From: Raillietiella orientalis
Taxonomy: Eukaryota
Reading direction: 5' to 3'
Assembly: GCA_036172245.1 (NCBI GenBank)
Contig: JAYWIR010000014.1
Span: forward strand, 2,108,001-2,172,000
Length of the DNA stretch: 64,000 bases
Positions 7,375-62,190 of this stretch are shown one piece after another; within the stretch, counting starts at the first letter, position 1; every line of letters starts with the position of its first letter. The translations under genes were made by a program, and so were the position numbers. The notes under the pieces are model-generated. The model was given only the letters and a program-made list of their open reading frames with translations. It was not told the DNA's origin and did no database searches.

Positions 7375-7661
7375 ACGGTCTGCAGCGGCAGGCGTCAAAG
7401 GGAGGAGGAGGGACTCCAGGAAGCGCAGGTTCGGAGAAGGGGAGGGACGAGCCGCCATCTCCCGGGAGCTGGCGCACGCGCGAGGGATCCCCTGCCCTAT
7501 GTCTCCCTTTGGAATGGAGGAGGAGGAGGAAGAGGAAGGGAAATGCTGAGGGGGGTCGAGAGGGAAGGTCGCTCGACCTTGCCGGCAAGAGGAACTTTCC
7601 AGGGCGACCAGCTGATGCGCTCGCGACCCTACGTCCCGCATGAGCCAGTCAGCGAGCGAAG
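7375..7661 (+). repeat. Repeat unit shared with 2617-2932 (inverted) and 5454-5525 (direct, partial)
   Basis: Direct sequence comparison. Confidence 0.85.
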
Positions 7662-23100: not shown

Positions 23101-23877
23101 AATCGTAATTGTCGTATAAGGAGAGATCGAGGAGCAGTGTGTAGTGATAAGAACTCACCTTGTTGTAATGCATGCCAGTTTATGGCTGTGGGTCAGAAAT
23201 GTCGTGATGCACAGCCAGCTACTTGTGAACAAGAGTCCCGTTGTACTGGAGCTTTAGCAGAATGCCCAGTATCTCCTCCTATGCCTGATGGAACAGAATG
23301 TATTGAAAAAGGGCAGTGTCTTGGTGGTAAATGCATTGCTTTTTGTGAAACACAGGGCATGCAAAGTTGCATGTGTGATCAAAGTAAGTGAAATCTGCAT
23401 CATTTTGTTTTTTATAAAGAAATTGCAGAAGAACATGCATGTAAGAGATGCTGTCGTTCTCAGCTGAATAGTTCTTGCACACCTGTTATCCCTTATGATA
23501 TTTTATTGGATGGGACTCCTTGTATTCATGGGTTCTGTAATAAGGTAATTTAAGTAGAAGTATGAAAGAATGACCTGTTGCAGGGGCATTGCGAGAGAAC
23601 TGTTCAAGATGTTGTAGAACGCTTCTGGGATATAATAGAAGATATTACCATTAATACTGTCCTCCATTTCCTCAAAGATAACATTGTTGGAACTGTGGTG
23701 CTCATTTCTCTAATTATTTGGGTGCCAATATGTATTGTTGTTTCTTATTTCGATCATAAGAAGAGAGAAGAACATCAAAAGTTTATGGAGTGGTGGAAAG
23801 GAAATGAAACTGTGCACCCTTCTGAATCAGTCCAACTTATTCATTGTGGATCAAAGTTATCTTCTTCAACTGCCTAG
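20162..23877 (+). CDS. ADAM17: ADAM17/TACE metalloprotease-disintegrin, multi-exon (exon 1 20162-20240, exon 2 20587-20722, exon 3 21380-21480 ... last exon 23584-23877)
   Basis: Signal peptide [21 protein letters not shown]; prodomain LKYYETL; cysteine switch CAYIK; furin site [18 protein letters not shown]; zinc site [12 protein letters not shown] with Met-turn YLMY; disintegrin [36 protein letters not shown]; transmembrane helix. Confidence 0.97.
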
Positions 23878-41049: not shown

Positions 41050-43530
41050 AATTTCTCTCAGGTAAGACTTTAAAAAAATCTTAATAATAAAATTTCAATG
41101 CCACTAAGAGAAAGATAATGGAATATTAAGAACAGAAAGCAAATTTTTGATTCGAAAGTTATGATGAGAATTCTGGAGAAGCAGAGGTACAGCAACTGCT
41201 CCCGACCAAAACTCAAAACGCTTTGCTCATTTGCAGGCTGCACGGTTTTCACCCTCCTACACCTAAGACTGAGTTCCCAGTAAAGGATGCACTTTGCCTG
41301 GGGCTTGGAAGGATAGTTGTTGTCTTGTCTCTCTCCAAGATCCTACTACTGAAGTCTGCTGCAAGTTGTTTTAGCCGAAAGACACTTCCAATATATCTGG
41401 AGGGCATTGTGGTTTCCTCTTTGTGTCTAAAGGATGCCCGACGCAGAGTGACCTCGCTCAAAATGGCAGGTATCCTTGGAAATGAAGGGGAAAGTTTTTC
41501 ATTTCATATCCTCTTGAATGATTCAGTTTTCATGAAGTTTTCGACGATTCGTTATCGAACGGGTTAAGTGATGATTTGGTGAAAACGAAATTCCATGCAC
41601 ATTGCATGGAATTTAAGAAAATCTATCTCGAGTAACAACCATGCTTATTAGAATACGAACATCACATCCTTTAAAATATTCTTTCTGCTTCTTACATATC
41701 GAAACAAAAAAAGGAGCAGCATAACTTATGACGAGATGGTTCAACCTTCTCCTAAATTAAGTGAGCCATTGATTCGTTTGAGTCTTTTGGAAGATGTTGA
41801 CTAGTTATTGGATTAATACGGAAGTGTGTAGACGAAACTTCTCTTACTCACTACTCTCTATTAGTTGCTTGGGTTGTTTGATGATAAGCATAAAGATAAG
41901 AGTCGTAGGATGAGTAGTGATTCTACATTCAGAACATGGTTTGAACTGGCAACAGTAAATAAATCTTGCGTAGAATCAGCAGCAGTTGTGGCAAAACAGA
42001 TATCAAGTTGGCTTAAGATCTGGGAAAGAACCGGAAGACTGGAAGATATTTCCAACAAGCTGCTCATCTGATTCCGACTTCATGAGAAAAATCGATGCTT
42101 CCGCTTTCCAACATGAAAACACCATAAACTCAGCAGGCGTTGAAAGGCGAGTTTTGTGAAACACAGCCGAAGAACTCACAGCAGTCAATGGAAATAAGTT
42201 GCGAGGTTGCAAACCAAAACTAAGATTACCAATCACCACATTGGTCATCTCCACATGACCTCAGCCTCGTCGATCGAACGCCTTCGCTCGGTGATGGCTC
42301 ACTTGATGGAGAAAATAGTAAGTGAAAACGAAATCTTTCTAGCAGATCAACCTTCGGGGTCCGGAATGCGAACATCTTCCAGTGGACCTTCCAAGAATCG
42401 GAACCAATGTCTTTTTCGTAAATTGACTTCGAAAAAGTACTTGGTACCATATTGCTGCCTACGATGGGAATTTGTTAGAGAATAAACGAAGAGGGGTGCA
42501 CATGTCATTTGCATCGACGGCTGAAGAGCTCCATCTGCATAAGAGCTCAGCTGCATATGCCAACAAATGCCTTTGGAAGCAAAATGGAAAGAACGCTGTC
42601 TTCTTTCTGACACAGAGTTCTTAGTTGTTCATGGAATCCTGCTGCTATGCGTTAAACAAATTCAAATCTTCAAATTCGATGAAGGTTTGAGTCCATGGTA
42701 CTAAAAGGAAACTGCTCTCCGATATTCTCACTTAAAAGAATCACACAAGCTCTGGACTTGTTTTGCGAACAAATTATGATTTCGATGACTAAAGCTGACA
42801 AAATTGCACTGTGAAAGAAAGCATCTCCCAAAATGGAACACTGGAGAGGAATTCTCATGGTGGAGTTCCCTCAGGAAAGTTCCAGAAGCTCGGGTAGTGT
42901 TTGAAATTAAACGTTGCTTTGCGATTTTAGCAGGTAGCTTATATGATAAACAGGATCAAAAGCCCTTGCCGAAACTTGCAGTCACCCGGGAGTTCCACAT
43001 ACTGGAGTTTGCGTGGCCACGCGGTTCCGCCGTCACTCATTCGACCACTTCTTTATTAGGAAGCAAAGCCAAGAGAATCACCAAAGATGAGGATTTGGTC
43101 ATATCCCAAGTCGAAACTTTAAGCCAAAGAAAAATGTTAGTTTTCATCCATGAGTGTCTCATTTCATCCATCCTGAGTGGTTTCCGTTCCTAATTCCTAT
43201 GATGAAATCTCCCTTGACGTTCGTCTTTGTTCCAGAAAGACTTCTAACGTTCGGAACGTTTGGAAATTCTCCTCTGACGACTACTTGCCTGAGAGGAAGA
43301 AAGCCTTCTCCCTCCAACTTGCTATAACAATTTCCAAACGGTGCTTAATGTTGTCGTGAATTTCCAACTGACGACAGAATCCACTTTGCTGTTGAGAATC
43401 CCATTTAAGGTGCAACCGACCGACCACGATGCCTCCGTCAATCGGAAATTGGAACCTTTGCTTGCTTAGCGGTTCGCATTCGAGCAAGAACAAAGTTGGA
43501 TTCCTGGGAAGTTCTCGCTTGGTTGCCATA
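41050..43530 (-). pseudogene. Degenerate Nipped-B/NIPBL-like fragment (C-terminal half)
   Basis: Collinear: QLEIHDNIKHRLEIVIASWREKAFFLSGK (~RLDMQRGVHGRLMDNSTSVREAAVELLGR), LQCSILGD (~TKCSTQND), TNVVIGNLSFGLQ (~TKAIIGLGFAFIQ), LKQ...SPRQSA (~LKQ...SPSESA). Confidence 0.7.
42255..43130 (+). pseudogene. Degenerate CAP-like fragment (N-terminal half)
   Basis: IERLRSVMAHLME (~VERLERAVGRLE), CQQMP (~CQQP), IQIFKFDEGLSPWY (~IQDFREKHRSSPFF), REFHILEFAWPRG (~KEFHTTGLAWSKTG). Confidence 0.65.
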
Positions 43531-43599
43531 TACTGCGTGGATTTCGATTTTCATCAGGGATGGACATGAACTGTTCATTTTGCTCTACGAACTCGAAGT

Positions 43600-45136
43600 A
43601 TGACGAAGGATCTGGCTGCTAGATGGGCACGCAGCGTCGGACAACGGAGCACGCAGGCGCGCCAGCCACGTGCTCGTGCGAGCGAACACGAAAGCTGAGA
43701 CTTCCGCAAGCTGGACGACTGGCTTTCGGCGACGAGCCCCTCCCATTCGTGGACTTGCGGTGGGGACCTGCGGGATCCAGGATCCGCCTCAAAGACTTGG
43801 CGGCTCCACATCGGGATGGCATCCTGACCTTTGACAGAATCGGACTGCAAGTGCAGTTCCGAATGTGTGCCAAGCTGTGACTTCCCCGTCGTGCGCTCCT
43901 GCACGCATTATCCTACGGAGAAGCGCCGGCAGCGAGCTATTATTCTCTCTGGTGCCAGGCACTCAATACAGGATCCGGGGATTCGGCTCCCTACTAAGAC
44001 AACTCGCGTCGCTACCGGAAGTCCACTCGTGGATCTCCTGCCGCCCAGTAAACTACAATTCTTGGCGTCAGGAGGCTGCTGAGTCCTGGACTGCGTTCCA
44101 GAGAATGCTCCCTAAAGATCTTTGCCCCCTGCAACATCTCCTACCTCCACCGCTGGGACAAGTAATGCACGACGCGGTGAAATTTTCAACTCTTGCCGCA
44201 GCGCTGTCTGCCTTCAGGGCAAGAGAGGACAGCAGCTTATCGGCGAGGTGGGAGCTTTCCTGCATCATCGCGGGAAAAACCAACTTTCCTTGGCGGCTGG
44301 AAAATGCGCAAGCTGGCGGATGCTGCCACTCCACGTGCAGAGTCGACGAGACTCCTTCGGTGGGGCGAACTTTTGAGTGTTGCCCCTGAAGAAATTGTGG
44401 TCCCTCCCTATTGTGTGGACTGTTCGTTGTTCCCCCCTCGCTTGGAAGCAGGCCGTGCTACTCTTCATACACCGGCGATTCCAGTATATTGAGCGACGAC
44501 ATCGAGTTTCCGGAAGGGTTGTACGTGCGAACTGTGGCACAGGCTTTGGACTCCGGTGCCCTCCAAGAACTGAAGCAGAAAGTGGCAACAGCTCTTCTGC
44601 AACAGGAGGATACCGCAACAGACGTACTACAGCGTTTCTTTGCTCTTGGAGGCCTCTCCACAGGTGCCATTATTGCAGCCATGGGTTGCATCCGCGCCAT
44701 CGTTTCGGCCCGATAGTTGCAGGATGGGGCTTCAAAGGGAGGCCATCAGGATAGCAGCCACTCACATCGGGCGGCTGCCAGGTGGCTTCGCCTGAGAGAA
44801 GCAAAAGATCATCGACATCCAACTCCGGTTGATGGATGATTTGGAAGGCGAATCCGGTAATCCTTGTCTTCTCCCTCCCTTTACTTCTTTTTTTTCAAAT
44901 CTGCCGTTCCCTTACGCTCCGTAACTTTCTTGGTATTTTTTGTTTTTATCGCGGTGATTGCGGTGCTTCACCCAAGATCCGAACCCCTTCGCTCCCGTTT
45001 TTTTTTGTTATTGTGCCTTTGTACTTCCCCCGTTCCGGACTTTCCGTCTACCTGGTCTGCGTGCTGGTGGGCCCTTTCCTATGTTTCTTTCTTCTCTTGG
45101 TCGCGGACTTTGTTCCCGATTTGTTTATTTAATAAA
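43600..45136 (+). mobile_element. 5'-truncated L1/Tx1-like LINE 3' end (thumb + zf-RVT, pyrimidine-rich 3' UTR, AATAAA at 45131)
   Basis: CHSTCRVDETPSVGRTFECCP zinc-finger-like motif. Shares LRQLA..W.SCRPVNYN with ~59300-59470 and AAALSA..ARWELSC with 56560-56650. Confidence 0.6.
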
Positions 45137-45149
45137 CGCCCGGTGTGAC

Positions 45150-45700
45150 TGCGTGATAAACTTCCGGTCTCCTTCGTCACAAGAACGATGTTGTTGTCAG
45201 GACGACCGCCGGCGCGGTTTCCACGTGGAACGATTTGACAACGGACTGGAATTTTTGGATTCGACGAGGAGCTTCCGTCGCCATGAAGTAGCTGTCCTAG
45301 TTCTATGTTTTCGTTAGAGTGTTTTGATTCTGTCGGTGCAAGCTGTGGAAGCAAGCAGCCCGAACACCCACACAAAGTGAGTCCCGCTTCCTTCCGTTCG
45401 CTCCATTCCCGAGCGCATTCGGGACGCTCGCCCGGATACAGGGAAAGGCGCTTTCACGGAGAGTAGCGCCCGCTCCGGCAACCTACTGCTCCTGGGTACT
45501 ATTTCTACTAACGTGTTTTCTTCCCTCTCATCTTAATTCTTCACCGCTGCTTCTCGGGAGTTTTCTTCTTGGCTTTCTTCCCAAAGTATGGAAGTCCGTG
45601 GGACTTCCACGGACACCATGTTCTGTCCGTTGTCAGGTTGCAGCCTCCCAGCTTGATCATTCTGAACCCCATGGTTTAGCAGGAATTTCCTTGTTAACAA
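45150..45700 (-). pseudogene. Degenerate NIPBL-like fragment (early HEAT region)
   Basis: LLASTACTDRIKTL resembles LLAAACTDYISKFYVEN of the 62.2 kb copy; its position fits between the 47.3 kb and 43.5 kb pieces. Confidence 0.4.
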
Positions 45701-45719
45701 AGCCAACGGGAAAGTTCCA

Positions 45720-47185
45720 AAACGAACAACAGAAACCCACATTGAGATGAAAAAAGGGAACATCCCGTGCAATGTTCTGTCAGAGGCATTCAGTTACCTA
45801 GGCAAACCCTTCGATGTCAAGGTATTTCACCCACGTCCGTCCAAGGAGGACATTTGCCAGAAAGCGAGTGCCATTCCAGATAGTGGGCTTTCGGGATGCC
45901 AGAACATGGATGCAATCCAAACATTTTCCTTTCTTTGGCTAGTTCTCTACAAGAGAACGAAGGAAAGGAAGTGTGGCACTATATGGATGGGGAAATCCGT
46001 CGCAAGGACAAGAAAGCCTTGTACTCTCCCCATCCTGGATAGCCAATCCATACCTCTACGGAGAGGAAAGCAAAGGTTGCGTAGGACTGATGAAGCTAAG
46101 CAACGGGTCAGTTATGTTGAGCTTGGGCAGCTGCTTCCAGTTACCTCATCGGACAATGCGGTCAAAAGATTAGCGCATGAAACTCGAGACGAAGTGGTCA
46201 AAAGAGAATCTGGGAAGCCCGACAGAAGAAAGTCTCCAGAATTCGTGACAAGGATTACGTATAGGAATAAAATACAATGCGAGAAGGACCTAGAGAGCCT
46301 TTGGACTGAAGGAGGAAAGGTCTCGAGAAGAACAAAAGCACGATGGAATTTCAAGGAAGGAGAATTGAGTATAACGGTCGAGAGCCTCATCCTCACCAGC
46401 AGCCCGGGAAGAAGGTTTACCTCCGTCGTGAGTACACTGTAGAGGGAACAAGCATGCCAGTCCTCAATCCAAAATCACATGAATCAAAGGAAAGCCATGC
46501 AGTGAGTGGGCATGCATCACGCTTGCAGCTTTTTCCACATTAGTGGATACCATCGGAGATTCCAGGTTCCGAAATGGTTTCGCGCAGAGAGACTCAACGT
46601 GCTACCAATCCACGACGGACTAAGAGGAAACCAGAAGAACCCATATTTCGATGTTGCGAAACGTTGTGCCACATACTGAATGGATGCCAAAGACTCCTTT
46701 TTCTGTCCATGGCACGCCAGGACACGGCTCATCAGAACGAATGCAGTGGATGAAGCAAACTAGAGCCTAGAGTCAAGAAAGCAGAGGGTACCAAAAACAA
46801 CTTTTACCCAAAAAACCAGTTCTGGTATGAGAAGAGAAAACTGCATATGTGCGCTCGACGTCAGCTGGCACGCGAAAATGAAAAGGGAACTCTCAGGACA
46901 GCCAGGAAGATCATGGAAGGGAAGTACAAGGACGTAGCACCACTGCTAGGAAAAGGCGGAAAGCGAAATAAAAAAACCGCGTCCATCGCTGGCTCTCTGG
47001 GTGCGTGGGACCCTGGTAACGAAAAAGTATTCCAAGATATGGGAATACCAAAGATGAAGCTGATGGAACTGAGACAAGGGATGTTGACTGCGTGTATGCG
47101 GTATTCAAGTGATATCTATGCAGCCCACGTCATAAGGAAAACCGACAGGCAGCCGGAGAATGCCGACAATCTTCTCTCAGCATAG
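45720..47185 (+). mobile_element. Degenerate NeSL/Utopia-type (R2-group) non-LTR retrotransposon: RT end, CCHC and restriction-like endonuclease
   Basis: FSYLGKP (RT end), LWTEGGKVSRR, RLNVLPI, RCCETLCHILNGC (CCHC), ARKIMEGKY, GSLGAWDPGNEKV, YSSDIYAAHV: the motif order typical of NeSL/Utopia ORFs. Stops and frameshifts present. Confidence 0.8.
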
Positions 47186-47309
47186 GAAAGCCAGGGAGTG
47201 GAAGAATCACCCTGAAGAAGAGTGAAGAGTGTCCCAAGTGAAGAGAGAAATAAGTGTGAAAGAAAGTCCAGAGCCCTCCTGCAAAAAGTCTGTGAATGCA
47301 CGCATGAGA

Positions 47310-48010
47310 AGTAAAGTTTACATCTTCGAGGTGATCAAGATGAGATAAGAAGATGCGCTGACCTCACTCGTATTTCAGTCTCAAATGAAATTATAGAAAA
47401 GGCCTTGACTCATCCATAAAGATGATTTTTATCTTTCGTTCGCTTCCCATTTTCGTGATTTCGCAAGTTGCATTGGCACACTTTTTACCAAGAGAACTTC
47501 CCTCGTTGCAATTGCGAACGTCAGCACGCACAGTGATTCGCCTTCTCGATCCGGTCTCGAATTTTCGAGAGGCCGTTTTGCCGCCAGAAATAGGTATTAC
47601 TGCATGCTGCAATTCTGGAATCTTTTTCTTCTTCCTGTTTATGCTTTGCAAAGATTCCAATACCTCTCACCGTGGCGTGCTGCAAACTGCAGTTTCAGTC
47701 TTCATCTTCGGATGAGGAATTCTGGTTTCGCCATTTACCGATTTCCTTTATTTGTATCCATATTGAAGTATTCCAGGCATATCCAATACTGAGATACAGA
47801 AAATCGTTGCGAGGGCTGCATTTGCACGCCATTCACATGGTCCGGAGCGGCGACCTCACGATACATGGCAGCAAGTGGGGTGTTCTCTGGAGGCATGAAT
47901 CAGTCAGGGGCCCATCGCAGAATGAATGGGTTCTGAGCAGTGTAATGAAGGCATGAAGCCTGACAAGAGCTTGCCCTTGTTATCGATAGTGATCGAGGGC
48001 ACTTTCTTTT
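47310..48010 (-). pseudogene. Degenerate NIPBL-like N-terminal fragment
   Basis: VPSITI..LSGFMPSL (~N-terminal VPITTL..LTDLLPEL) and LDHLEDVNFT at ~47340-47310 (~LDNLEDMDFT). Confidence 0.6.
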
Positions 48011-48249
48011 TCCTTTTGTTTTAGACTAGCCTTACGAATATCGTTTCGTGACGTCACATTATCCAGCCCATTTGTTACCGTGCTTCGGAGGCGACTCGAG
48101 AGTCATCGGTCGACCCACTCGAGAGTAGTTAACCTAGCCAAACCTACCTGGTGCCATTTTACCTGAACTGACTTGGAAAGGAAGTGGAAAAGTGCTTTGC
48201 TTGCTGATGCATGACGGTGAAATTCTTTCATGAAACTCGAATCCGTACA

Positions 48250-48980
48250 CCAAGTGGTCTACGCACCAAGTTCACGCTGACCCGCTTCTTTGTCGCAGGC
48301 AGGAAGATGCACACACACCAACTCCCTCAGGGAACTGCGTACTGCCCGAAGTGATGCTACATTTTGACATGCTGTTCAAAGGCGATTCACGCAGAAGTCG
48401 CTTACTCGCGAATTCGGATTCACGGAACTGGCGTTGCCTGCGTCACAGAATGCTCGCACTCATTCGTGCAGTCGCGAAAGCAATGACTCACACACATGCG
48501 CAACGTACATGATGATCCTTGAGGAAACCAGGAACGCGTGCTTTCAATGTAGCGTCCGACCAACTCAGTTCCCAGCGCGTGGCGTACTGACTGACGACCA
48601 AACTACCGAATTACGGAACCAGGAAGAAGGATTTCAAAAAACAACGGGAGAAATAATTTCGGATGACTTGGGGGGACTACAAGAACTGAAAAATCTTGAT
48701 TGGAGAAAAGAATAATGTTTCCGATACTCCGCCTGTTTTTTTGTGTATCAATTAGCAGCTCACAGGCAGGAACTTTCACTTGCCCAATGCACGGCTCGAG
48801 ACTCATCACTGCGCTGCGGAGCTTCAGTGACTTCACGTCCGCAGCAGAGTATCTGCTCCGCAACGATCTCTGTTGCCTAGCAACAGAGATTTGTTCTCAC
48901 GAAAGGCCAGCCAACCTCGACAGGAACATTCGAGAGGAACATACAACCTCGATCACCACTCTCTCCTGGTTCAAACGACG
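48250..48980 (+). pseudogene. Degenerate NIPBL-like fragment in inverted orientation
   Basis: TRFFV (~TPFFV), LPASQNAR (~LPTSKRSL), FQCSV (~IQCVV), AAEYLL at 48841 (~AAELLL), in correct order. Confidence 0.6.
48600..48960 (-). pseudogene. Degenerate CAP C-terminal (CARP) domain-like fragment
   Basis: QVKVP...IILFSNQDFSVLV...FFEILLP (~QVMGKVP...IVSAKSSEMNVLI...FNEFPVP). Confidence 0.4.
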
Positions 48981-49649
48981 ATCTCGCCGGGAGCCACCCT
49001 TCACCCCGAGGGCGCTCCCGGATGCAGAACCGTGTCGCCCTTCCTTCCCCACCCCCGAAATCCAGAGTTGCCTTTGGCGTGCCAAGGGGAGTGGTGTGTG
49101 ACGTCAGTACCCTCGCCTCCCCAACTTTGGAATTTTCCCTTTCCGGAAGCGCCCCTGCATCTCCGGCCGTCCACCTGCCTCTTCGACAGATTGGTGCTCC
49201 CTTTGCCGGTTGATGCGTTGTAGCGCCCGGCAGCCTTCTTCAGGACATCTTCGTGTGTGCAGCGCCCGCTACCGCCGGGCGAGCCTGCCGCAAGCTGGCG
49301 AGCTTTTCCTTCATCTCCTTGGCTCCCGAAAGCGACCAATCTTCCTCGTCCCGGAAGTAAGAACTTCCCGTCTTCCCCCATCGGATTCCTGGTTCTTCTG
49401 AAGCGTGCCACTGCAAGCGTTCCGGTGCGTCGGGCACTAGGTCCAGTAGGTTGAGTTGCCCAGGCGATTCCGCCTGTCTGTAGGTTGCCTCGGCCTGCGG
49501 GCAGTCCTCGCGGGATGGTCCGTTTCGTGTATGCCCACGTTGCCCTTCAACTGGTTCGAAATTTCCAGGCTTTAAATTAACCCACAACTCTTTTGGGGGA
49601 AAATTCGTCGAGGAGGAGAAGCAGTGGTGCTCTCCTTTTTAACAAAATT

Positions 49650-52600: not shown

Positions 52601-53030
52601 TTCCACTGCGCTCGTGAGATTGAATCAAAGTAAACATTCATTCTCAGTCAATGAATGGAATCGTAGTTGTAGAAGATGGAATGATGATTCATCAGAGTAT
52701 CCCTATTCGAGCCAACTTGTTTTGGCGCCTGTAAAAATCAAGAATGACAACAACGAAACTGAGCAAGACAATCGTAACAAGACATTGCAATCTTGTTTCC
52801 AGAAGTTTCGGTCCTAGTGTTCTTAAACGATCACATCAAGGGTGAAGTCCTAAAAAGTTCATCATCAGTAAAAGGAATGCAGAAATGAAAGTAGCAGGAA
52901 ACAAATCAGTATGTGTGCACCGAAGATGATTTCACAAATCAGCAATTTTCCCCAGGCCGACATACGGTGGGGTGAATTTATTTTCTACTCTCATTCATAC
53001 AAGTGTTGGTCAATGTCACTGTTTTTCACT
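49650..53030 (-). pseudogene. Long degenerate NIPBL-like copy (most of the HEAT region)
   Basis: Collinear: LLDNMLLMLNRLERKK (~ILEEIFTSLARLPTSK), Y*RLFVSTIIDI (~YRPLFENFVQDL), LADVAVTCTPSLL..LRESSL (~LSEVVAVDPSIL..VREAAV), LIRNNDEQIK (~MIRRVNDEEGIK), KLHGSYSYVW*LF (~KVTQNFKFVWACF), SQITIE (~SKITEE). Confidence 0.7.
52300..52720 (+). pseudogene. Degenerate CAP-like fragment
   Basis: FYSTALVRLNQSKHSFSVNEWNRS (~FYTNRVLKEWKEKDVTHVEWARA). Confidence 0.4.
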
Positions 53031-53179
53031 TCTAGGGTTGGTCTGCGGACATCCAGTCACTGAATTTGTGTGGGGAAATCACTCACTTGACAATGTTCCT
53101 GAATCTTTCGCAGGATATAACAGTACGTCCAAGTGGGAATACGTCCACAGCTCCTTATCCCAATATTCCTTTTCACTAA

Positions 53180-53760
53180 ACATTTCAGTATTTCCCCAGC
53201 GGGCACACTGTTTATTCCGGTCCGCATTTTTGCCCTTCTCACCACGATGCTCGTGATAAAGAGGGCGATGGTGATGCGGACCATTGGGTTGTATCGAGGA
53301 ACATCGTTGCCGTTCCTTTCAAGCATCCCTGCCAGGATCTCCATCTTGTCCATCCTCTGCGGGCCTCTCATTCCCTCCAGCTTGACCCAGTCCCGGCGTA
53401 GTGTCGGGAAGGTGAATACGTGGAGTTGGGTATCCCTGGCTCTATAGACCTTGCACATCTCGTCCTGCGCGTTGCCTGACCAGTGCCTCCTCCTCATGCC
53501 GCTCAGGATGCCTCCGTGATAAAACATCAGAAGGTTATCCCGAGTGTCGGGTAGTAAATCGGTTCTCCAGACCACGGTTCCAACCGCCAGCGAATTCACC
53601 TGGAGGCATCCGTATCGGCTGGCAGCCGCATACAGAACGTCCCCCAAGTCGAAATTCTTCATGATAGCTTGCTGGAAATTTGCTCTGGGATCCCGGAATA
53701 GGAGGCATCCTCGAATCCAGAAGGAAAGGATCCCTTACAAATGCGTTCTTCATGAGTCGT
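53180..53760 (-). mobile_element. L1/Tx1-like LINE 3' fragment (zf-RVT region)
   Basis: VWRTDLLPDTRDNLLMFYHGGILSG...CKVYRARDTQLHVFTFP..RRDW matches the zf-RVT pattern W......R..L..H.....C..C...T..H.F.C....W. Confidence 0.65.
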
Positions 53761-54059
53761 TGCGCTCAGTGCGCAGCACGACTGTGGAGAATTGTTTCGT
53801 CAGTGAGCAGATGGTTGGTATCGGTTCTGGTTTTCGTTTCTCTGGGGCAATTGGCATGGATCCGGAGATTCGATGTTTCGCGTATATCTTGAAGATCCGT
53901 GTATGCGTCCATCTGAATATACACACTTGCGTGCGAGCATGTGTACACCTACTTTGAGCAGTGAATGCGCGTGTGTGGGCACGGATGCTCGTGCTGCCTG
54001 AGTGCCTAGCGAAAAGGAAGGAAAACAAAGAGAGGAAAACATTGTACTGAACATTGGCT

Positions 54060-55580
54060 ACAAACCGAGACTATAGAATTTGACGAGGATAACCTTTTCG
54101 GAAAACTGCATGCTTGGTTTCACACTTCGTGCATCGCAGCTGCTACTAGCTTCACCAGGGCACTTTGTTCTTAAAGCACTTTCAAGGTAAAGTGGGCCTT
54201 TCTCAAAGTGGAAGTGGCTGCAGTAGGTGTAGCACGATTTGTTTGGAGCCGAACGTGACTGTTTCGACAGATCGGAAATTACACTCGCAAGGCAAAACAA
54301 GGAAAAAGGAGGAAATGTCGTTTGTCCGTGCCAACGTTCTCCGTGCTTGCTGTGTTGCGGTCTCATTGGCTCGTTTCGACGTGACGACGGTTGCGGGAGC
54401 GGTCCATAGGCGAGATGCTAGTGATGCGCGTCGGACTTTGCTGTCGTGTCAATTGCAGCTCAATTGAATGCTGGCTATGAAAGATGTTGAAAACCTGCTT
54501 CCATCCATTGAAGAGACAATGATCACGGTATTCGAATCCATTGCGGCACGATTGGAAAAAGCAACCACGAGCCTGGAAGCTGCGGCAACAACGGTGGCCC
54601 AACCTCGCGTGAAAGAGTCCGACAGCTTCGATAATTCGAGTTTCCCAAGTGTACTTGCCTCAGACCTACAGACAAGTACGAAGGTGTACATCCATGCTGC
54701 CCGAAGTTGCCGGAGCCATACGTGCGAAACGCATCCGCATGGGTGTTTCGAACAATTGGGCTTGGGAAGCAATTCGTTGTTTTGTTCCCCCTAGCATTCC
54801 TTGGCTCCTTTTTGTGAAAACAGCTTGGGTTGCTGGGATGGGAAACAAGGTTTGAAATTCTTGCAATTCCGATTCATTGCCTGTCTTTTGAGAAACGGAC
54901 CCTGAGTGGCTCCTGGACTTCTACGAAATTCGATGGGGATCTTTGGCGGTTTACCACTTTCGATCTCTAGATATTCTTCCCCGAAGAGGTTCGGCAGCAC
55001 GCGAATATGGTGGTGAAAGCATTCTGGTAAAAGCTCCGTATTTTCAAGGCCATCGTTTGCGGTTGCCTTCCTACCGTTTTCAAAGTGTGCGAACCAGTGC
55101 TTGGAAACAACTTTTGCTGCTCGTGCAGAATCCAGAGTGATTTCCTCCATTTGGCATCTTGTTGAGAGCAGTCTAATGACCGTACGGTGCCTCTTTCCGA
55201 ATGTCTTCGACAAATCGAGGCATTCAGAGAGAACAACAGCTCATGCTTAATGCAGCTTCAAACTCCACTCGCGCTCGTCTTTGCGTGATAAGCGAACGAG
55301 TTGCGGACATTGCTTGGCTGACGAGAGTAAGTAGAAGGGCGCGTAAGTCGAAAGTATCCTTTCCCGATAGCCCAGATCGGGCAACAGCTGGGAAGGATAT
55401 AATGGAAGTAGAGCAATTGTTTGCTGGTCGCGTCCTTGAGGAATCGAAAGCAAAGTAAGTCTGGTGCACAGAGGGAAAACCAAAAAGTTGCTTGTTGCTT
55501 TCAGGGATGAGCAGGTGGCGTGCTTCAATTCGTGGATGAGTGTGTTGTCTGACTTGCACACATTTGTGCAAACGCATTAC
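54060..55580 (-). pseudogene. Degenerate NIPBL-like fragment (central/C-terminal HEAT region)
   Basis: Collinear with near-native spacing: AVARSGLSGKD (~AVDPSILARLD), GKRHRTVIRLLSTRC (~GISVRKRVIKILRDIC), KHWF (~KLWF), GWATVV..AFSNR (~GMTVV..AVVNK), SLF..CSHFHF (~SLF..CRHFDF). Confidence 0.65.
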
Positions 55581-56570
55581 CCAACATGTCTGAGCTGGAA
55601 CGCTGGAGGCGGCAGCGTTCGCGAGAGCGTAACGACACCCCCACTTGCACCCATCACGACCTGTCTCTGCCCTGCCCGAGTCCCATCAGCTGACTCGGCC
55701 GCATTCCTTTCCGATTGAAATCCGATCCGAGTAGTAGGAAGAGGTAGAATTCTCGCTGATTTCAGAGTTCTTTTAATGTTGCTCGTCAGGCTTCCGGCAT
55801 GTCACTGATGGCAGCAAAGCAGTGAAGTCTCCAGTCCCACCTGAAGAAGCAGGTTGCAACGTGATTGGGACGATGGGATGGCGTGGATAAACCTTTTCGA
55901 AAATGCTACGTTTGTCTTTTGTGTACTTGTTCTTCGTTCTGTGAGAGAAGTTTTCACCTCGCATGCATGAAGTCTCAGTGCACACCCCGTTGAGTGCGCA
56001 TCCTTGTACAGATGGTGCCGCTTGTCGACAAATTGCATGGACTAGGAATGATCCCTGTGCTTTTCTTTCATGCTGACCCGTTCAAGAAATCTCTCTTGCA
56101 CTCGAGGCTCCAGAGAGAGCGAACGGACACCAAATGTAGACGATGTCCTCGAGAAACGAGTATGGAAATTTCGCTGTTATCTGATCCTCCCTATCTTGTG
56201 GGGAAGTGTTTTTTTTTTTTTTTTTTGCTTTCTCAACAAAAACAAAAAACGAAGGAGTACTCAGGAGGAATCCACAGAGTCGGTGAAAGTGATGCCTCCT
56301 AATTGCAGAGTGCAAGCATTACCGTTCGCGCTTTTGCGAAATGCACTGCAATGTCGGAAATGGAATCCTCCATCATTCCCTCTGAAAGGAATACCGAGTA
56401 AAGTTGGTCCCTGGTCCCTACTACATACTGTTTACCAGATAAAGCAGCGGCAAAAGGCGGATCTTTGCATTCTGAAATCGCCGGTCTCACCGGAAAACAA
56501 ACAAGACAACCAATTATTACTTTCATTTTCTCAGAAGGCTTCTACCTCACTTTCATCCTATGCCATTCCT
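54500..56570 (+). pseudogene. Near full-length intron-containing CAP (Srv2/capulet) pseudogene
   Basis: ARLEKATTSLE; ISERVADIAWL; RVLEESKAK|DEQV; WMSVLSDLHTFVQTHYPTCLSWN; SAAFLSD*N; GFRHVTD; VWKFRC; YAIP. Relic introns GTAAGT..AG at 55327-55370 and 55455-55504; removing the second restores the CAP alignment in frame. Confidence 0.8.
55720..56170 (-). pseudogene. Degenerate NIPBL-like C-terminal fragment
   Basis: FVDKRH (~EIDKKY), ALLPSVTCRKPDEQ (~DNLACFPYQTQEEP); weak. Confidence 0.35.
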
Positions 56571-57340
56571 GCAGTGGTGCAGGACAACTCCCACCTCGCC
56601 GGTAGGCAACTGTCGTCACCTAAGGCAGACAGTGCTGCAGCAAAGAGGTGACTTCCGCGGGAGTGACCGCACATGGAGGAAGAGCTGCCTGGTTCGCATG
56701 CTGGCGGTGGCCGAAATTCGACCTGTCGATAGAGCCGACAGTAATGGTGGACGACCACATGAATCTTCAGAATGCCACTTGGAGGTTCTTCGTTCCGTTC
56801 CGCTGCATTCAAATCCGCAGAAGGAATCGTGTGGCATATGCAGCAGTGTAGGGGATTTGAACGCAAGAAGGGATACACGGGAATGTTGGCCGACGAACTC
56901 GCAAGAAGTCCCAGGAAGACAACTCTCGAGCCAGCCGGGAGAAGCCGAAGAGACGGGAAAGCCCAGATGGGCCGCAAGCGGAAGGTATGATATGCGGAAC
57001 AGTCCACTGCCGAGGTGTCCCTAAGAAGGAAGCGAAGAGGAAAACCCGACGAGCAGATGGGCGATTCTTCCCAGGGACGCCGTCTGCCAGGGCGGAGGAA
57101 CCGGAGCTTGACGCCATCGCGGCGATGCCGGGAAGGCGAACTCAGTTCAGGCATCCGAGGGAGAGAGATCCCCACCCTTTGATCCATCTCGATCCTCAGG
57201 TTGCCAAGATAGTTAAGCCTCGTTCCAGCACAAGGCGGCAGCAGAAAAATTTGGAAATGCTTCGTCACTTGGGAGTATCTGGCAATGACAGGGAGAGACC
57301 AGACTTCCCCCAGCTGCGACCCGAGGGCGGGGCACTGAGC
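56560..57340 (-). mobile_element. L1/Tx1-like fragment related to 43600-45136
   Basis: AAALSALGDDSCLPARWELSCTTAG vs AAALSAFRAREDSSLSARWELSCIIAG; nucleotide similarity visible. Confidence 0.65.
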
Positions 57341-58759
57341 TAGTACGGACTTTCGGGACTTCCCTCATATCAGGCAGGCAGGAGTACTCTTTTTCCGGGC
57401 TCCAAGCACAGGAAGGGTCCTCTTCCTAGATGATTCTCTGGAGCGACGATAAGGGAACTTTCCCTGCAGCTCGACCTGATTCCCCATCTTCCAACCAAAA
57501 ATTGTGCTACGTGTTTGCGTGGGCGGCGCGCGCGGGAAGGAGTCGAAGGGCTTTCCGTGCTTTCCCGACGGCATCTGCTCCTGTTTCCTGAATTCCAGTT
57601 TCTTCTTCGCGGACTTTCCTCTAGTGAAGGGAGGCAGGGAGAAGAAAAACCGCGGCCTCCAAGAGATTTTGAGTCCTCCCGCTTTTGAAACCATAGCGTT
57701 CCTTTCTTTCCAGCCCTGGAATCTGCTCTCTCCTCTCGAGCTCGCAATTTTCGCCTAAGGCATCCTTTGGCAGCAGTGGCATTTCGAAAGACGGACACTG
57801 GCAGTCCAGAAGATTCCTTCCGGCACCTTTCCCCACGGGAAGCAAGAGCCAGCAACCTTTCGGCAAAGTGGGAGGTGACGTGCATCATAGACAACCGGAA
57901 AAAACATCTGGATACGTAGACAACTCGGGAGCTTACAGATGCTGCCACCCGAGTGTCCCTCCAAAAGGACTGCTATGCTGGAGAGAGCTATTACGAATTC
58001 CTCCGGAGGAGGTGCAGCTCTCCCCATAAAGTAGCAGGATTCGGCGATCCTTCTGTTGAATTGAGGCCTCCCTTGCAATGCCCACCCACACTGCTGGACC
58101 TAGGGAAGTGCGAGCCCCGATTGCAGCAGGTGCGGCGAAAGAGAGCCACTCTCTCACCAGCTCGTGGATCGTGTTGTCCTCTCCCTTTGTGAGAACGTTT
58201 TGCCGCGTCCCTGCGGAACCCCGGGGGCAACCCCAGAGACCATCTGAAGCGTCACCTCCAGCGCGACGCCCTCATGCCGGCCGCATCCCTAGCGGCTTGT
58301 GCTGCCTACGCGGGATCGTAGATGCATGGGCAGCGCAAGAGAAGGTCAGGACGGCAGGGGCGTCATCTATTTTGCTGTCCTCTTCATGAAGATAGCGCGT
58401 CAAGATGGTCCCATCTGGGAACCTCAAAACAGGAACTTACCGGCATCCTGCATAGGATGAGGAGGGCACCCTCCAGCACCCGGTGATCCCTTCCAGGACC
58501 CTCCCAATTCTTTGTATATATTTTTTGTTTGTTTGTTTCCCCTCTCCCTCTGCTGCTGAGGAGAACCTCGCCGGTCTGCGTACGTGTTCTCGGCAGGTTC
58601 CTTTTTGTATATATATGTAACGTTGCGGGACCAAGTGTCCTGCCATTGAATTGTGTGTTATGAACAGATGACCTGACACAAGCGGGTTCAATCCAAGGAT
58701 TACAGCAAACTCTAACTGTGCACTAGCTAGATGGGGTCATGTCATTGTCATCCTCAGGA

Positions 58760-61700
58760 AGCTAACGGCAAAGTGGATGGATTCCTATCACCGTCGCCTC
58801 TTTTGGTGGCGCTCCAGGCAGCCACACTTCCGAGGAGACAGCAAACTGCTTGAGACGCTGCTGACAGTAAAGTATCGCGTACAAAGAGGCGCTTAAAAGA
58901 ATCTCTGGGGTTTTCCCACTGGGATCCGCTGCTCCGTTAGCTGTAGCAGCGGCAGCTAACGAAACAGGATTTCGTGACAAATACGATGCGGAGATGCGGG
59001 CGTGAGCAGTCCAATGTTACAAGCTCGCAATCCGCTACACAGTGAGTGGAGCGATGCCGGGAAACGACAGCAGCTAGCTCGGTGATGAGCTGCACTGTGT
59101 AGGAGTGCAGTTGGAAGATCTTCTGACCCTGTCGCCTGATGAACTCCCCATAGAGCTAGAGGAGCAGAGCTGCGGCAAAAGGGGTGCCCTCACGTTGTCA
59201 TAGTGGGGTCCTCGACGATTTTCCTGAGCAAGCAGCAAGGATAATCCAAAAATCACAGGCATTTTCATGACTCTGAGCTCTGCTCATTCACATTCGCCCA
59301 AGTGCCAACTGTTTCTTGTAGTCTGGCATTATAGTTGACGGGTCTGCAGGACATCCATTCATTCTCCTTCAGGGTAGCCAATTGCCTCAGTTGGAGTCCG
59401 CAATCAGATACCGGAGGTACATAAGGAAAGCCGTTTCCGGCTACGCTTTTGACGAGAAGGCGTGCAGGAACGCACCAATGGGTGCTCCGGTTCTTCCCCA
59501 GAAGGGTGAGAATTCTCCATTGAAACTTACTCCATTCGATCCAGCGTCAGGAGGCGGAGACCGCAGTCCCGACAGTAAACAAAGGTAGCCAGAGTACCTT
59601 TGCTTTCCCTCAGTACCAATTCGAATTAGGTGTTGAAGAGCAGGGGAATTACGGTCATCTAGAGCGCAGCTGGGCTAGGAAGACAGACGAGAATCCTATG
59701 AGTCCTAGGAGCTCCAGAAGAACATTAACAAAGGCTCCTGGTGCCTCCGTTTTAAAACGGCTTTCCATTCCTCGGTCAGCTAGGAATCCGGGATTCCTGC
59801 TGTCCGAGGGGCGCCTACCCTTGCAACTGGAGCCATGTACGGGCCAGGAACAGGATGACTTCCACTCCGTCTGGGAACACCGCATGACTGTTCCAGACTG
59901 ATAAACGTTTTTGCCAACCGTCCCAGGCTTTCAGTGCAAACTTCGCAAGCAAAGTACTTGATGATGATGGTGTTCAGACATCCGCTGTTTACATACTCTC
60001 GCTAATCGGAAGGAAGAAAGCATCTCACCCGTGTTGAATCAGAGAGCACAACTGATGCATCAGTGGAGTTAGCTCTGTCGCGAAACACTGATAAAATTCG
60101 GCCGACATGCCGTCCTCTCCTGATACTTACCTCCTATTGATCTTTCCAATAGCGAAGGTGTTCTCTTCCATGGTGAAAAACTAGCTGAATTTATCACGCG
60201 CTTCATTCCCTTTCGGGGAGGAAGCGCCTGATCACCTTCAGGCAGTAGAAGCAGCAACGAATTTGTACCCCGGAGGTGCCTTCGCGTACAGGGAGGAGTG
60301 GAACCTCCGCATGAGGCCTTTTATCTGTGCCGAGGATGAGCATTCCTGGACCTGGTCGTCCATCAAGCTGATTGGCCCCTATTGCCAGACTTGTTGCCCA
60401 GCTCCAACGTTAAAGTCGGCCAATCGTCGAACGGACTTTGCGGTTCACAAGGCTGCAAAAAAACGCGATCACTCCTTATACCTTTTCTAGATCTGGCTGG
60501 AAGCCGGTGCACAGGAAAATTCGTGCAGAACTCTCTGACCTAGATTGTCATCTCGTCCCACTCCTGGACTGCCTGCACATTGACTCCTACAGGAAGTTGC
60601 AGAGGTGCTCTTCCTGTAGGTCGAACCAGTCCCCTGGCAGATGCCACGCATTGAAGGTGGGAGTGGTTCCAGACAGATCCTTCGCGCTTTGAGACAATTG
60701 CTGACACGCGCGCAGGTGGTGGCCAAGGAAAACTTGAGGATGATATTTTCCATCTTGGATACTGTGGCCATTGAGTTGTACACGTGCATGGTTGTGAACA
60801 ACTCTTTGAGCAGATTCTGCTGAATACTTATCTCATCTAACAGCAATGGGATGTTAAAATCAGTAATCAGTCAAGTTCTCCGCACGCTTACGTCAGCCAG
60901 CCGTTCGCGCTTCGGGATATTGAAGACGCGCATGCTGGTACTCATCGAAGCGTAAATGCTTGTCTATGAGCTTCATCCAAAGAGGATAGACGTAGTGAAA
61001 CGATGGTGTAAGCAATGGAAATCAAATATTCTCTATTTTTTCTATTCTTACCCAAACCCTTTAAAATAATGGATCATTTCAACAAAAGTTACCCTACTCG
61101 ACCTTTCTCGTCGAGTAGAACTCTCGCACTGCGCTCTCCACAGCTAAAGTCAAGTAGGAACGCAACTTTGCAAGAGTGCACAGAACACCACAGTAGCTCC
61201 CCGTCCGCGATATTTCCGATCCCCTAAAGCTTCCTTCACAGAGATCCTGTAGATCCCTTGCAGGAGCGCCGGGGTCGAACGAATGCAGAGCAGAGGCCAT
61301 ATTTCCTCGTGGATGCGTAGCGTGTTGACACACCGAACAACCACGCTAGTCGATGGCAGGAGGTGAGTCCCCACATCACTGCTGCAAAAGTGGTAGAAGA
61401 GTTTCTGCTTCCTGTTCAAGCAGGCCGCTGGATAGGGGGAGCGGGAACCTGGGGGACTGAAGCACACCCTTTCCTTGATTCTCAGTTGCTGTTTCGGATT
61501 GCGGAAGTTTATCCAGAGAGTTGGGACAATTGCTGGGTCCGCGGTCCCACCAACATCGTCTCATTTCCGGAGCCTGTGTAGAAGCTTGCTCCCTTCGTGA
61601 ACAGTGATCTCACTGCTGCCAGCCCACTGAATAGCTCCTCGGATTTGGGGAAGGGGCTAGGCTTTGACCACAGTGCGTACATCATTCCGGATGACTACAG

Positions 61701-61900
61701 TTCCTGGAGGACATTGTCCTTGGAAATTCTTACCGTTATTCCGGTGAAGCGAAGGATCACGGATAGGCGCTTTCTCACATAGAGCCTGCACTCCTCTAAT
61801 GTGATTAGGGGTTCGTAGCAGGTGTTGAGCAAGGTCTGCATCTTTGCAACTGAGCTCAATCATTTACGGATCGAGAGCTTTTCTTCTCCGAGACGGAGCT
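58760..61900 (-). mobile_element. Degenerate, internally deleted L1/Tx1-like LINE (possible ORF1 knuckle, APE, RT, thumb)
   Basis: APE-like SIYA and LITDFNI; RT SGEDGMSAEFYQCFATELTPLM, CLNT..KYFA, ISLEQSCGVPRRS; later PARLLVK..LRQLATL..WMSCRPVNYN, shared with the 43.9 kb copy. Confidence 0.75.
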
Positions 61901-62190
61901 TTTGTAGCTCCTGAGCGAAGGAACACGTGATAATACCCAATTTACTCAGTCTACCTTACAGTGCTGCGAGGGATTAGATCCTTGGGCATCGTAGGTAGAG
62001 TCCAGCCTGGACTGCCAGGGAATCTTTCGCAGCCATCTGCATCCACAATCTCCCATTCTAGGAGAGCGATTCTTAAGAGGACGTGCCCTCTTCTGAGTGT
62101 ACAGCTCAAGAGAGAGGGATGTTGGCCTTCCTGGCCATTCATAGTAGTGTCTCCGGGCATGGCAGCCACGAAAATACTGCTATTCTCCAC
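60640..62190 (+). pseudogene. Degenerate NIPBL-like fragment on plus strand, antisense to the L1
   Basis: Collinear: QILRAL (~QILRVL), LSRF..ISQVLRTLTS..ILK (~LGRF..IERILDTGIS..ILR), AAKVVEEFLLPV (~VAKILELVVPL), KGLGF..LSLEILT (~IGLGF..LYNNILS), VGRVQPGL (~MGDVSSGM). Confidence 0.65.

Follow-up and report, generated by a model that had tools for sequence, protein, structure and literature searches.

The locus at positions 54060-56570 of the window (the whole 64-kb stretch of DNA that was analysed) raises the question of whether the remains of two unrelated genes can occupy opposite strands of the same bases. The earlier note had proposed that an intron-bearing relic of a CAP/Srv2 gene on the plus strand is physically superimposed on a collinear relic of the gene for the cohesin loader NIPBL on the minus strand. 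Results of our analysis favour, with a probability of roughly 0.55, a reading in which the plus strand at ~54.5-55.85 kb carries an unprocessed, decayed CAP/Srv2 relic (a pseudogene or gene fragment), and in which the minus-strand ORFs are antisense by-products and no two relics are superposed. The positions of the relevant features are collected in Table 1.

Table 1. Features of the locus discussed in the text, with their positions in the window.
Feature	Position	Strand	Remarks
119-aa ORF with CSHFHF	54061..54417	-	frame differs from that of the other anchor-bearing ORFs
113-aa ORF with GWATVV	54452..54790	-	same frame as 54794-55240, one stop (54791-54793) between them
ATG-started 108-aa ORF	54468..54791	+	R-L-E at 54549-54557; CAP N-terminus of the earlier note
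149-aa ORF with VIRLLSTRC and KHWF	54794..55240	-	antisense to plus frame 2, codons aligned
Nearly open frame 2	54818..55285	+	stops TAG 54968-54970, TAA 55028-55030, TGA 55163-55165
AGAGAG run	55226..55231	+	the CAP-like reading would have to leave frame 2 for frame 1 here
153-aa ORF	55227..55685	-	no stop in either GTAAGT..AG stretch; lies antisense to the CAP_N-like frame-0 segment, codons aligned
Frame-1 segment ending LCVISERVADIAWLTR	55228..55326	+	putatively CAP-like
GTAAGT..AG, 44 nt ("intron 1")	55327..55370	+	length not a multiple of 3
Frame-1 segment ending GKDIMEVEQLFAGRVLEESKAK	55372..55454	+	putatively CAP-like
GTAAGT..TTTCAG intron, 50 nt	55455..55504	+	once it is removed, frame 1 continues exactly in frame 0; AA|G forms one Lys codon
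Frame-0 exon-like segment	55505..55718	+	ends at TGA 55716-55718
FRHV-TDGSK-AVKS-P, WH2-like, frame 1	55792..55833	+	~60 codons past the end of the helical domain
Frame-2 stretch	56303..56602	+	CAP C-terminal (CARP) domain of the earlier note; in-frame TAA 56399-56401
Dispersed-repeat fragment	56566..56651	.	3' edge of the locus; 75-79% like 44186-44276, inverted

CAP-like pieces of the plus strand

The CAP half of this reading appears to have weak but real support, which comes from an exon match at the correct domain end, an intron that restores the frame and a WH2-like string. The part of the exon-like frame-0 segment at 55506-55630 resembles the final helices of the helical folded domain (HFD) of CAP. 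The ORF 55440-55715 matched the Pfam family PF21938 (CAP_N) at E 0.077 and 13.5 bits, over profile positions 121-159 of 159, and this match, the sole CAP signal of the locus, is sub-threshold, as the cut-off of the family is 27 bits. In the PDB search with the exon, the top two matches were 1tjf_A (E 0.014) and 1s0p_A (E 0.017), both of them CAP-N chains of Dictyostelium aligned to the chain ends, and the match list held no animal CAP chain. Word-based homologue searches with 55506-55715 among longer proteins yielded none at E ≤ 0.01 or at E ≤ 10, the Atlas query with the same segment gave no usable match, and a search for the CAP_N family in 14 control genomes found none.

The low score of the exon match leaves room for the possible, albeit less likely, alternative that nothing at the locus is gene-derived. 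The DNA between the repeat fragments would then be non-coding, poor in TpA and moderately rich in GC, and the resemblances to CAP and to NIPBL would have been drawn by chance from a very large number of possible readings. Six Pfam matches at E ≤ 0.1 were obtained, with loose thresholds, among ~101 ORFs, and the E-value of CAP_N is no better than the rest; unrelated weak matches of the same scans include ICAM_N (0.061), DUF429 (0.047), EPO_TPO (0.038) and SPATA19 (0.022). Likewise, chance matches at E 0.09-0.2 occurred among ten PDB queries. Against an origin by chance speak three properties of the segment: CAP is ranked first for it by two libraries, with the alignment reaching the very end of the domain; it begins exactly at the acceptor of the frame-restoring intron; and the WH2-like motif follows downstream at the expected spacing.

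Both introns assigned to CAP in the earlier note are literally present as strings (GTAAGT at 55327 and 55455, AG at 55370 and 55504). While removal of the second restores the frame exactly, removal of the first, of 44 nt, does not. CAP-like text in frame 1 stands on both flanks of "intron 1", and frame 1 has no stop within it; an alternative intron of 33 nt at 55343-55375 would preserve the frame. The size of the second intron fits that of the introns at the ATR exon junctions of the same window (31-47 nt). If the relic is real, the retention of this intron argues against a processed retrocopy, and the weak matches would reflect descent from a CAP gene, either copied at the DNA level or decayed in place. 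What is left of the gene would then be the terminal part of the HFD, an intact small spliceosomal intron ahead of it and the WH2-like motif downstream. In-frame stops and changes of frame would have broken up the remainder, to the point at which no CAP protein could be made.

Pairs of GTAAGT and AG are easily found, and a dynamic-programming search for open "spliced" paths in the locus gave several alternatives; such a permissive reading is compatible with a chance origin. All of the open paths found end at 55716-55718, without WH2 and CARP. One of them, which leads from the ATG at 54468 to that stop through five GT-AG introns of 40-57 nt and comprises 336 codons, may suggest that the locus still is a functional CAP-like gene, fast-evolving or truncated, with several tiny introns, the sizes of which would be normal in this genome. 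This we consider very improbable. The path is a product of optimisation, in which some of the CAP-like text is lost; CARP is missing from it, as is an in-frame WH2, its exons lack Pfam or PDB support, no homologue was found, and the composition is unlike that of the real genes of the window. No continuous spliced ORF covering all CAP domains was obtained. Codon periodicity was not seen at the locus either, though this is a weak test, which true ATR exons fail as well.

Outside the matching exon, the pieces of the proposed CAP relic gave no CAP match. The string R-L-E, which we take to be a mark of the N-terminal coiled-coil oligomerisation domain of CAP, is indeed present in the 108-aa plus-strand ORF. 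Pfam searches found no CAP match for 54468-54720 at E ≤ 10 and none for the whole ORF at E ≤ 0.5, and the available part of the CAP review PMC7543520 holds no occurrence of the string "RLE". The three stops of the nearly open frame 2 are removable by no intron of plausible size. This stretch could be, on our assumption, the first half of the CAP helical domain; its read-through translation, with X at the stops, gave no CAP match, the matches being TROVE in Pfam (E 0.22) and R-spondin-2 in the PDB (E 0.094). The single-sequence AF2 model predicted for 54890-55240 (+) had a pLDDT of 44.8, too poor for a structure search. At 54907-54967, the DNA seems CAP-like to us in each of two frames, which is a warning of over-reading CAP motifs.

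Further downstream, 55166-55285 (+) gave no CAP match, and the AGAGAG run may be a putative frameshift lesion, with no GT..AG there. The two frame-1 segments at 55228-55326 and 55372-55454 likewise seem CAP-like to us; the PDB search with 55180-55455 and the Pfam search with 55228-55455 found no CAP match, and 55372-55454 alone gave no Pfam match. In the case of the stretch claimed as the C-terminal domain of CAP, the claim could not be upheld: the read-through of 56303-56602 had no PDB match at E ≤ 10, its sole Pfam match was TMEM106_N (E 0.18), and there was no CAP match in either. A model of the CARP beta-helix domain (CAP_C type) matched none of 54 plus-strand ORFs at E ≤ 0.5.

The WH2-like motif can be compared with mouse CAP1, in which the WH2 domain has LKHV at 270-273 followed by THKN at 279-282 (PMC5951797, Table 1). 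FRHV and AVKS, separated by five residues, share three of the eight motif residues with LKHV and THKN, with like spacing. The PDB search with the WH2-like piece 55777-55887 was empty.

According to PMC7543520, the domain order of CAP/Srv2 is OD-HFD-P1-WH2-P2-CARP. The locus would be like CAP/Srv2 in that a segment recognisable as the end of the HFD is followed, in the expected order and roughly at the expected distance, by a WH2-like xxHV+5+xxKx, and it is unlike CAP/Srv2 in that it stays below the family cut-off, that CARP, the proline-rich motifs and the first HFD helices are undetected, and that the frame is broken. Of the plus-strand CAP motif series put forward earlier, then, the weak match at 55506-55630 stood, and the other pieces found no CAP counterpart. 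Against a CAP relic speaks the fact that no CAP match was obtained for the N-terminus, for the initial two thirds of the HFD in whichever frame, for the WH2 piece or for the claimed CARP, as does the fact that most of the collinear motif series is an assumed resemblance. That the remaining CAP tests were all negative would equally be expected if nothing here were gene-derived.

Antisense frames of the minus strand

The strings from which the NIPBL relic had been read are all found in the minus-strand translations: VIRLLSTRC at 55154-55180, KHWF at 55091-55102, GWATVV at 54587-54604 and CSHFHF at 54205-54222. The span from KHWF to TVV is 172 codons in one minus frame, as had been claimed approximately, and this frame has a single stop between 55240 and 54452. 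The presence of the strings and their spacing in one frame are what speaks for a CAP relic superimposed on a collinear NIPBL relic, a reading to which we can give hardly any credence. Cohesin-loader families, the Pfam models of which (for the HEAT-repeat hook domain) we take to be named Cohesin_HEAT and Nipped-B_C, matched none of 47 minus-strand ORFs of at least 25 aa at 53500-57500 (E ≤ 0.5) and none of the four main ORFs (E ≤ 1). NIPBL/Scc2 chains, which were presumably present in the PDB copy searched, matched none of the three anchor-bearing ORFs at E ≤ 10. The anchors are spread over three ORFs, with CSHFHF in another frame, and no NIPBL gene that could be the source of a copy is present in the window. 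Furthermore, two unrelated genes that share one stretch of bases, each on its own strand, are not to be expected to be collinear. A likeness to the NIPBL/Scc2 cohesin loader was detectable by none of the tools, be it as a family, a structure-sequence or a database match, and the claim of a NIPBL relic is abandoned here. The part of it according to which the minus-strand reading runs through the CAP introns is correct insofar as the 153-aa ORF is open there; this ORF showed no NIPBL likeness in Pfam, where it had no match at all, and it gave no PHROG match.

The three anchor-bearing ORFs were similarly without detectable relatives. The ORF 54794-55240 had no Pfam match at E ≤ 1, no PDB match at E ≤ 10, nothing in the Atlas and no terminase PHROG. 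The PDB match at E ≤ 10 of ORF 54452-54790 was LptF alone (E 0.19), and Pfam gave none; ORF 54061-54417 had no PDB match at E ≤ 10, and in Pfam it matched SelP_C alone, at E 0.00098, below the cut-off of that family.

A phmmer search of ORF 54794-55240, the strongest anchor ORF, against 1.84 billion representatives gave one protein, and this was a homologue of SMG9, not of NIPBL. The match concerns a single stretch of 29-31 aa, with 24-27 bits, and its seemingly significant E-value of 1.9e-4 is an artefact, inflated by an internal fivefold repeat of the target, in which one stretch was counted five times. The homologue itself matches SMG9 in the PDB at E 4.9e-21; the residues matched by the ORF are specific to the homologue and absent from the human SMG9 chain aligned to it, there is no collinear second match over the G-fold domain, and human SMG9 was not found in the PDB search with the ORF. 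The same repeat-summing artefact accounts for a designed helical repeat protein at E 9.5e-5. Another seemingly significant value, the two-sequence E of 4e-6 with a phage terminase, is an artefact as well, since the alignment grew from an exact 8-mer, the very pattern with which the search was made; this pattern has 201 matches in the collection, which indicates that such seeds are common. While the phage ORF matches phrog_979 (terminase large subunit) at E 1.1e-68, the ORF of the locus has no such match at E ≤ 0.01.

It might also be supposed that the minus frame from 55240 to 54452 (263 codons with one stop) is a real or recent gene, either an orphan or one of a mobile element, and that the CAP-like text is accidental antisense of it. 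No other nearly open frame of the locus is as long, the amino-acid make-up of its 149-aa ORF is protein-like, and repeats as well as a strongly periodic ORF adjoin it. We regard this as very unlikely, in view of the lack of any true relative in the 1.84 billion representatives, Pfam, PHROGs, the PDB and the Atlas, of the low confidence of the single-sequence AF2 model predicted for ORF 54794-55240 (pLDDT 37.0, too poor for a structure search), and of the lack of a second copy in the window and of periodicity.

If the plus strand holds a decayed CAP relic, the antisense frames would be open since few TA-containing triplets occur on either strand, and in part through codon alignment with former coding frames. 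Long ORFs are known from the strand opposite DNA that codes, or once coded, for protein, and the 149-aa and 153-aa minus-strand ORFs correspond to them in being codon-aligned with plus frames 2 and 0, respectively. The locus also resembles known cases of long ORFs in TpA-poor DNA: TAA, TAG, TTA and CTA occur in the block at 52.9-62 kb at 0.24-0.60 of expectation, and the ORF excess is block-wide. At the locus itself, ORFs of at least 149 aa number 3 vs. 0.54 after dinucleotide shuffling (a count of 3 was reached in 2 of 100 shuffles), and the same excess in the block is 8 vs. 1.9, a number reached by 0 of 100 shuffles; the excess is therefore not a property of this locus, which would suit an origin in DNA that was never part of a gene. 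For ORFs of at least 100 aa in the block, 32 were found (13 plus, 19 minus) vs. 13.8 in shuffles. The poverty in TpA alone is not the full explanation, since the ORF excess survives dinucleotide-preserving shuffles. Each of the six frames of the locus contains 18-30 stops. In place of two superposed relics, we thus see minus-strand ORFs that are codon-aligned antisense frames in TpA-poor DNA, and the apparent overlap arose from short motifs read into such stop-poor frames. Similar "overlap loci" proposed for the same window warrant equal caution.

Base composition, repeats and possible origin

The CAP-like relic is set in a block of ~50% GC, CpG-undepleted and TpA-poor, with fragments of dispersed repeats, and this block is surrounded by an AT-rich, CpG-depleted animal gene region with ATR, an ADAM and CAAP1. 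GC-richer, CpG-undepleted islands of the window lie at 2-10 kb, 43-49.5 kb and 53-62 kb. The GC content is 48% at the locus vs. ~35% for the genes of the window, which indicates that the locus did not arise by recent copying of a host-type gene and counts against the CAP reading. Unprocessed pseudogenes resemble the locus in their patchy likeness to the parent family, the retained intron, the in-frame stops, the frame changes and the lack of an intact ORF; the locus differs from them in this GC content and in that its descent would be deduced from one weak domain match and motifs.

It is conceivable, and in our opinion very improbable, that the GC-richer islands are old foreign or mobile DNA and that the CAP-like relic is a non-host fragment brought in with its intron, or else that the 263-codon minus frame is a recently born or lost orphan gene antisense to the relic. 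The supposition of foreign DNA comes from the fact that the sole structural matches were to Dictyostelium CAP-N chains, with no animal CAP chain among them.

As regards other content, searches for rRNA, other Rfam families and tRNA were all negative. ORFs of at least 90 aa at 42-62 kb have no Pfam domain, which is compatible with DNA that is not derived from genes. In the 65% GC block, none of 78 ORFs of at least 80 aa had a Pfam match at E ≤ 1e-4, and four more ORFs of 300-400 aa had no match at E ≤ 0.01. With the decayed CAP relic as the preferred reading, the locus is ordinary: at most, it is a further case of an unprocessed pseudogene fragment, here from an actin-regulator gene, in a region that bears repeats.

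The ORF 53060-53734, which neighbours the locus, is strongly periodic (chi-square p 5e-7) and has no assigned identity; a word-based homologue search found no homologue of it and a viral-contig scan no relative.

No further copies of the locus were found in the window at the DNA or protein level. The repeat fragment at its 3' edge contains a peptide motif, ARWELSC..AG, common to 44225-44275 and 57836-57889. Contigs of one DNA sequencing run (share 0.06) were aligned to the window. Among the 68 run contigs on the window, 3 have at least 99% identity, 9 have 90-95% and 56 have less than 90%. They mark repeats at 52946-53645, 56539-56805 (with several diverged contigs), 58141-58674 and 59476-59742, and their cover within the locus is thin. 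One run contig links 54403 to 54549, leaving out 145 nt, and part of the plus-strand ORF 54468-54791 may belong to a repeat.

The CAP-like segment of the plus strand

The reading that we favour, with a probability of roughly 0.55, is that the plus strand carries a CAP-like pseudogene or gene fragment, unprocessed and decayed, in repeat-bearing, TpA-poor DNA, and that the ORFs antisense to it are meaningless. The earlier note described a series of CAP (cyclase-associated protein) motifs from an R-L-E motif to the C-terminal domain; of this series the CAP_N-like ORF is the only piece with tool support for CAP, and all other claimed parts gave no CAP match (see the table). The ORF matches positions 121-159 of the 159 positions of Pfam CAP_N at E 0.077 and 13.5 bits, which falls below the family cut-off of 27 bits, and its top two PDB matches are both to the Dictyostelium CAP N-terminal domain (1tjf, E 0.014; 1s0p, E 0.017), the alignment covering the last 43 residues of these chains.

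Coordinates (in the window) and strands of the features discussed
Feature	Coordinates	Strand	Remark
CAAP1-like gene	12544-15510	-	775-aa acidic exon; AT-rich block
ADAM gene	22389-23388	+	Reprolysin and Disintegrin domains; AT-rich block
ATR kinase gene	24479-33562	-	PI3_PI4_kinase, HEAT_ATR, FAT and UME domains; AT-rich block
Repeat family pieces	44216-44408; 57836-58026	+	peptide motifs
Repeat family piece	56567-56617	-	peptide motifs
Repeat family pieces	44024-44089 vs 59298-59363	+ vs -	peptide motifs
225-aa ORF	53060-53734	-
119-aa anchor ORF	54061-54417	-	CSHFHF at 54205-54222
113-aa anchor ORF	54452-54790	-	GWATVV at 54587-54604
149-aa anchor ORF	54794-55240	-	VIRLLSTRC at 55154-55180, KHWF at 55091-55102
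N-terminal ORF	54468-54791	+	no CAP match (Pfam)
R-L-E	54549-54557	+	present in an ATG-started ORF
Frame 2 read-through	54818-55285	+	no CAP match (Pfam, PDB)
Claimed CAP part	55166-55285	+	no CAP match
Claimed CAP part	55180-55455	+	no CAP match
CAP_N-like ORF	55440-55715	+	CAP_N and PDB matches
WH2 piece	55777-55887	+	no CAP match (PDB)
Claimed C-terminal domain	56303-56602	+	read-through; no CAP match (Pfam, PDB)

Two introns had been proposed, and their GTAAGT (55327, 55455) and AG (55370, 55504) signals are indeed in the sequence. The CAP_N-aligned part starts right behind the acceptor of the second, a 50-nt GTAAGT..TTTCAG stretch (55455-55504) the excision of which fuses frame 1 with frame 0 exactly, and the size of which is in keeping with the introns of this genome. 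The first, as delimited, does not preserve the reading frame: 55327-55370 is 44 nt long and is flanked on either side by CAP-like text in frame 1, a frame that also runs straight across it uninterrupted. An alternative 33-nt intron (55343-55375) would preserve the frame. Further collinear resemblances to CAP sequences that we see on the plus strand found no confirmation by tools; since two frames of one stretch (54907-54967) both looked CAP-like, we give such resemblances little weight. About 60 codons downstream of the CAP_N-like part, frame 1 reads FRHV, five residues and AVKS (55792-55830). In mouse CAP1, LKHV occupies residues 270-273 and THKN residues 279-282, as listed in Table 1 of PMC5951797, and the domain order of the family is given in PMC7543520 as OD-HFD-P1-WH2-P2-CARP.

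Taken blind, the evidence for CAP is not strong. With loose thresholds, six unrelated Pfam matches at E <= 0.1 arose among about 101 ORFs, and chance PDB matches at E 0.09-0.2 occurred among ten queries. The main rival, namely that even the CAP likeness is a product of chance, is less likely but quite possible. What lifts the CAP reading above this noise is that both libraries point to the same family, that the alignment stops at the domain end, that the frame-restoring intron junction is exact, and that the WH2-like string has the expected spacing.

The decayed, pseudogene-like state is consistent with the frames themselves. Between the frame 2 and frame 1 CAP-like texts there is no GT..AG, just an AGAGAG run (55226-55231), where we infer a frameshift lesion. 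Frame 2 has in-frame stops at 54968, 55028 and 55163, none of which is removed by any plausibly sized intron, and each of the six frames holds 18-30 stops over the whole locus. As to a live gene, a spliced ORF is formally possible: dynamic programming found an open path from the ATG at 54468 to the stop at 55716-55718 through five GT-AG introns of 40-57 nt. However, this path is a product of optimisation, contains neither WH2 nor CARP (the C-terminal domain), and is unsupported by any search.

The reading frames of the minus strand

The four minus-strand strings taken as anchors of a relic of the cohesin loader NIPBL/Scc2 are all present. KHWF and TVV are separated by 172 codons in one frame, which has one stop between 55240 and 54452; CSHFHF lies in another frame. 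No NIPBL or Scc2 chain was found in the PDB at E <= 10 for the anchor ORFs, and no Pfam family worth the name in these three or in a 153-aa ORF opposite the CAP-like exon, the sole match being SelP_C in the 119-aa ORF (E 0.00098, below cut-off). The NIPBL gene is absent from the window. With no NIPBL similarity found anywhere, the superposition of CAP and NIPBL relics is not supported, and we regard it as exceedingly improbable.

The length of these ORFs appears to have another origin. The codons of the 149-aa ORF are in register with those of plus frame 2, and the codons of the 153-aa ORF with those of plus frame 0, in which the CAP_N-like segment is read. Throughout the 53-62 kb block TAA, TAG, TTA and CTA reach 0.24-0.60 of expectation, and 32 ORFs of at least 100 aa (13 plus, 19 minus) occur at 52.9-62 kb vs. 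13.8 in dinucleotide shuffles (11 vs. 3.5 within the locus). This block-wide excess, together with the scarcity of stop triplets, indicates that long stop-free frames on either strand are a property of the block and not of the locus.

Two other kinships were rejected. A phmmer search of 1.84 billion representatives with the 149-aa ORF returned one library protein, P0002, an SMG9 homologue (E 1.9e-4), in which a 42-residue segment is present in five tandem copies. This fivefold repeat, which is probably an artefact of the assembly or of the gene model, inflates the score of this chance match, which sums one 29-aa, 24-bit match over five copies, and tblastn revealed no second, collinear one. A metagenome scan with the minus ORF yielded two copies (L002, L003) of one phage terminase gene, found because it holds the exact 8-mer used as search pattern; a total of 201 stretches matched a pattern, and the flanks contribute just ~8 bits. 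L002 matches a terminase PHROG at E 1e-68, and the window ORF none. An Atlas search and a single-sequence AF2 model of the 149-aa ORF (pLDDT 37) added nothing.

Composition and repeats of the surrounding DNA

The GC content is ~65% at 2-10 kb, ~33-35% at 12-42 kb and ~50% in two blocks (43-49.5 kb and 53-62 kb) with AT-rich stretches between them. CpG is depleted in the AT-rich blocks (o/e 0.32-0.61) but not in the GC-richer ones (0.82-0.94), which are strongly TpA-poor. Taken as islands, 2000-10000, 43400-49500 and 52900-62000 have 51-65% GC and CpG o/e of 0.82-0.91, and are surrounded by gene DNA of 33-37% GC. The genes of the AT-rich block are of ordinary animal type with very small introns (31, 47 and 37 nt in ATR, read by eye at exon junctions). 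No Pfam domains were found in ORFs of at least 90 aa at 42-62 kb, nor in those of 80 aa or more within the first 10.5 kb.

Dispersed-repeat fragments are present in the 53-62 kb block. The stretch 56566-56651 is an inverted copy of 44186-44276 (75-79% alike), and the peptide motif ARWELSC..AG occurs three times in the window. With WxSCRPVNYN, this motif makes an old dispersed repeat family visible at the peptide level, pieces of which are spread in both orientations across the two ~50% GC blocks. Contigs of X1, the one DNA sequencing run sharing words with the locus, are mostly less than 90% alike to the block and comprise several variants; three are identical (>=99%).

The 225-aa ORF shows strong three-base periodicity (chi-square p 5e-7) and is covered by several diverged X1 contigs, hence multi-copy; it has no relatives in Pfam, PHROG, a word-based search or viral contigs, and may encode an uncharacterised mobile-element protein. 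Within the locus, an 18-T run (56207-56224) followed by an A-rich stretch, treated as repeat during X1 contig placement, might be the tail of a retroposed minus-strand element. One X1 contig (depth 11.6) connects 54403 with 54549 and leaves out 145 nt, among them the ATG of the R-L-E ORF, a hint of a shorter copy at another place in the genome of X1.
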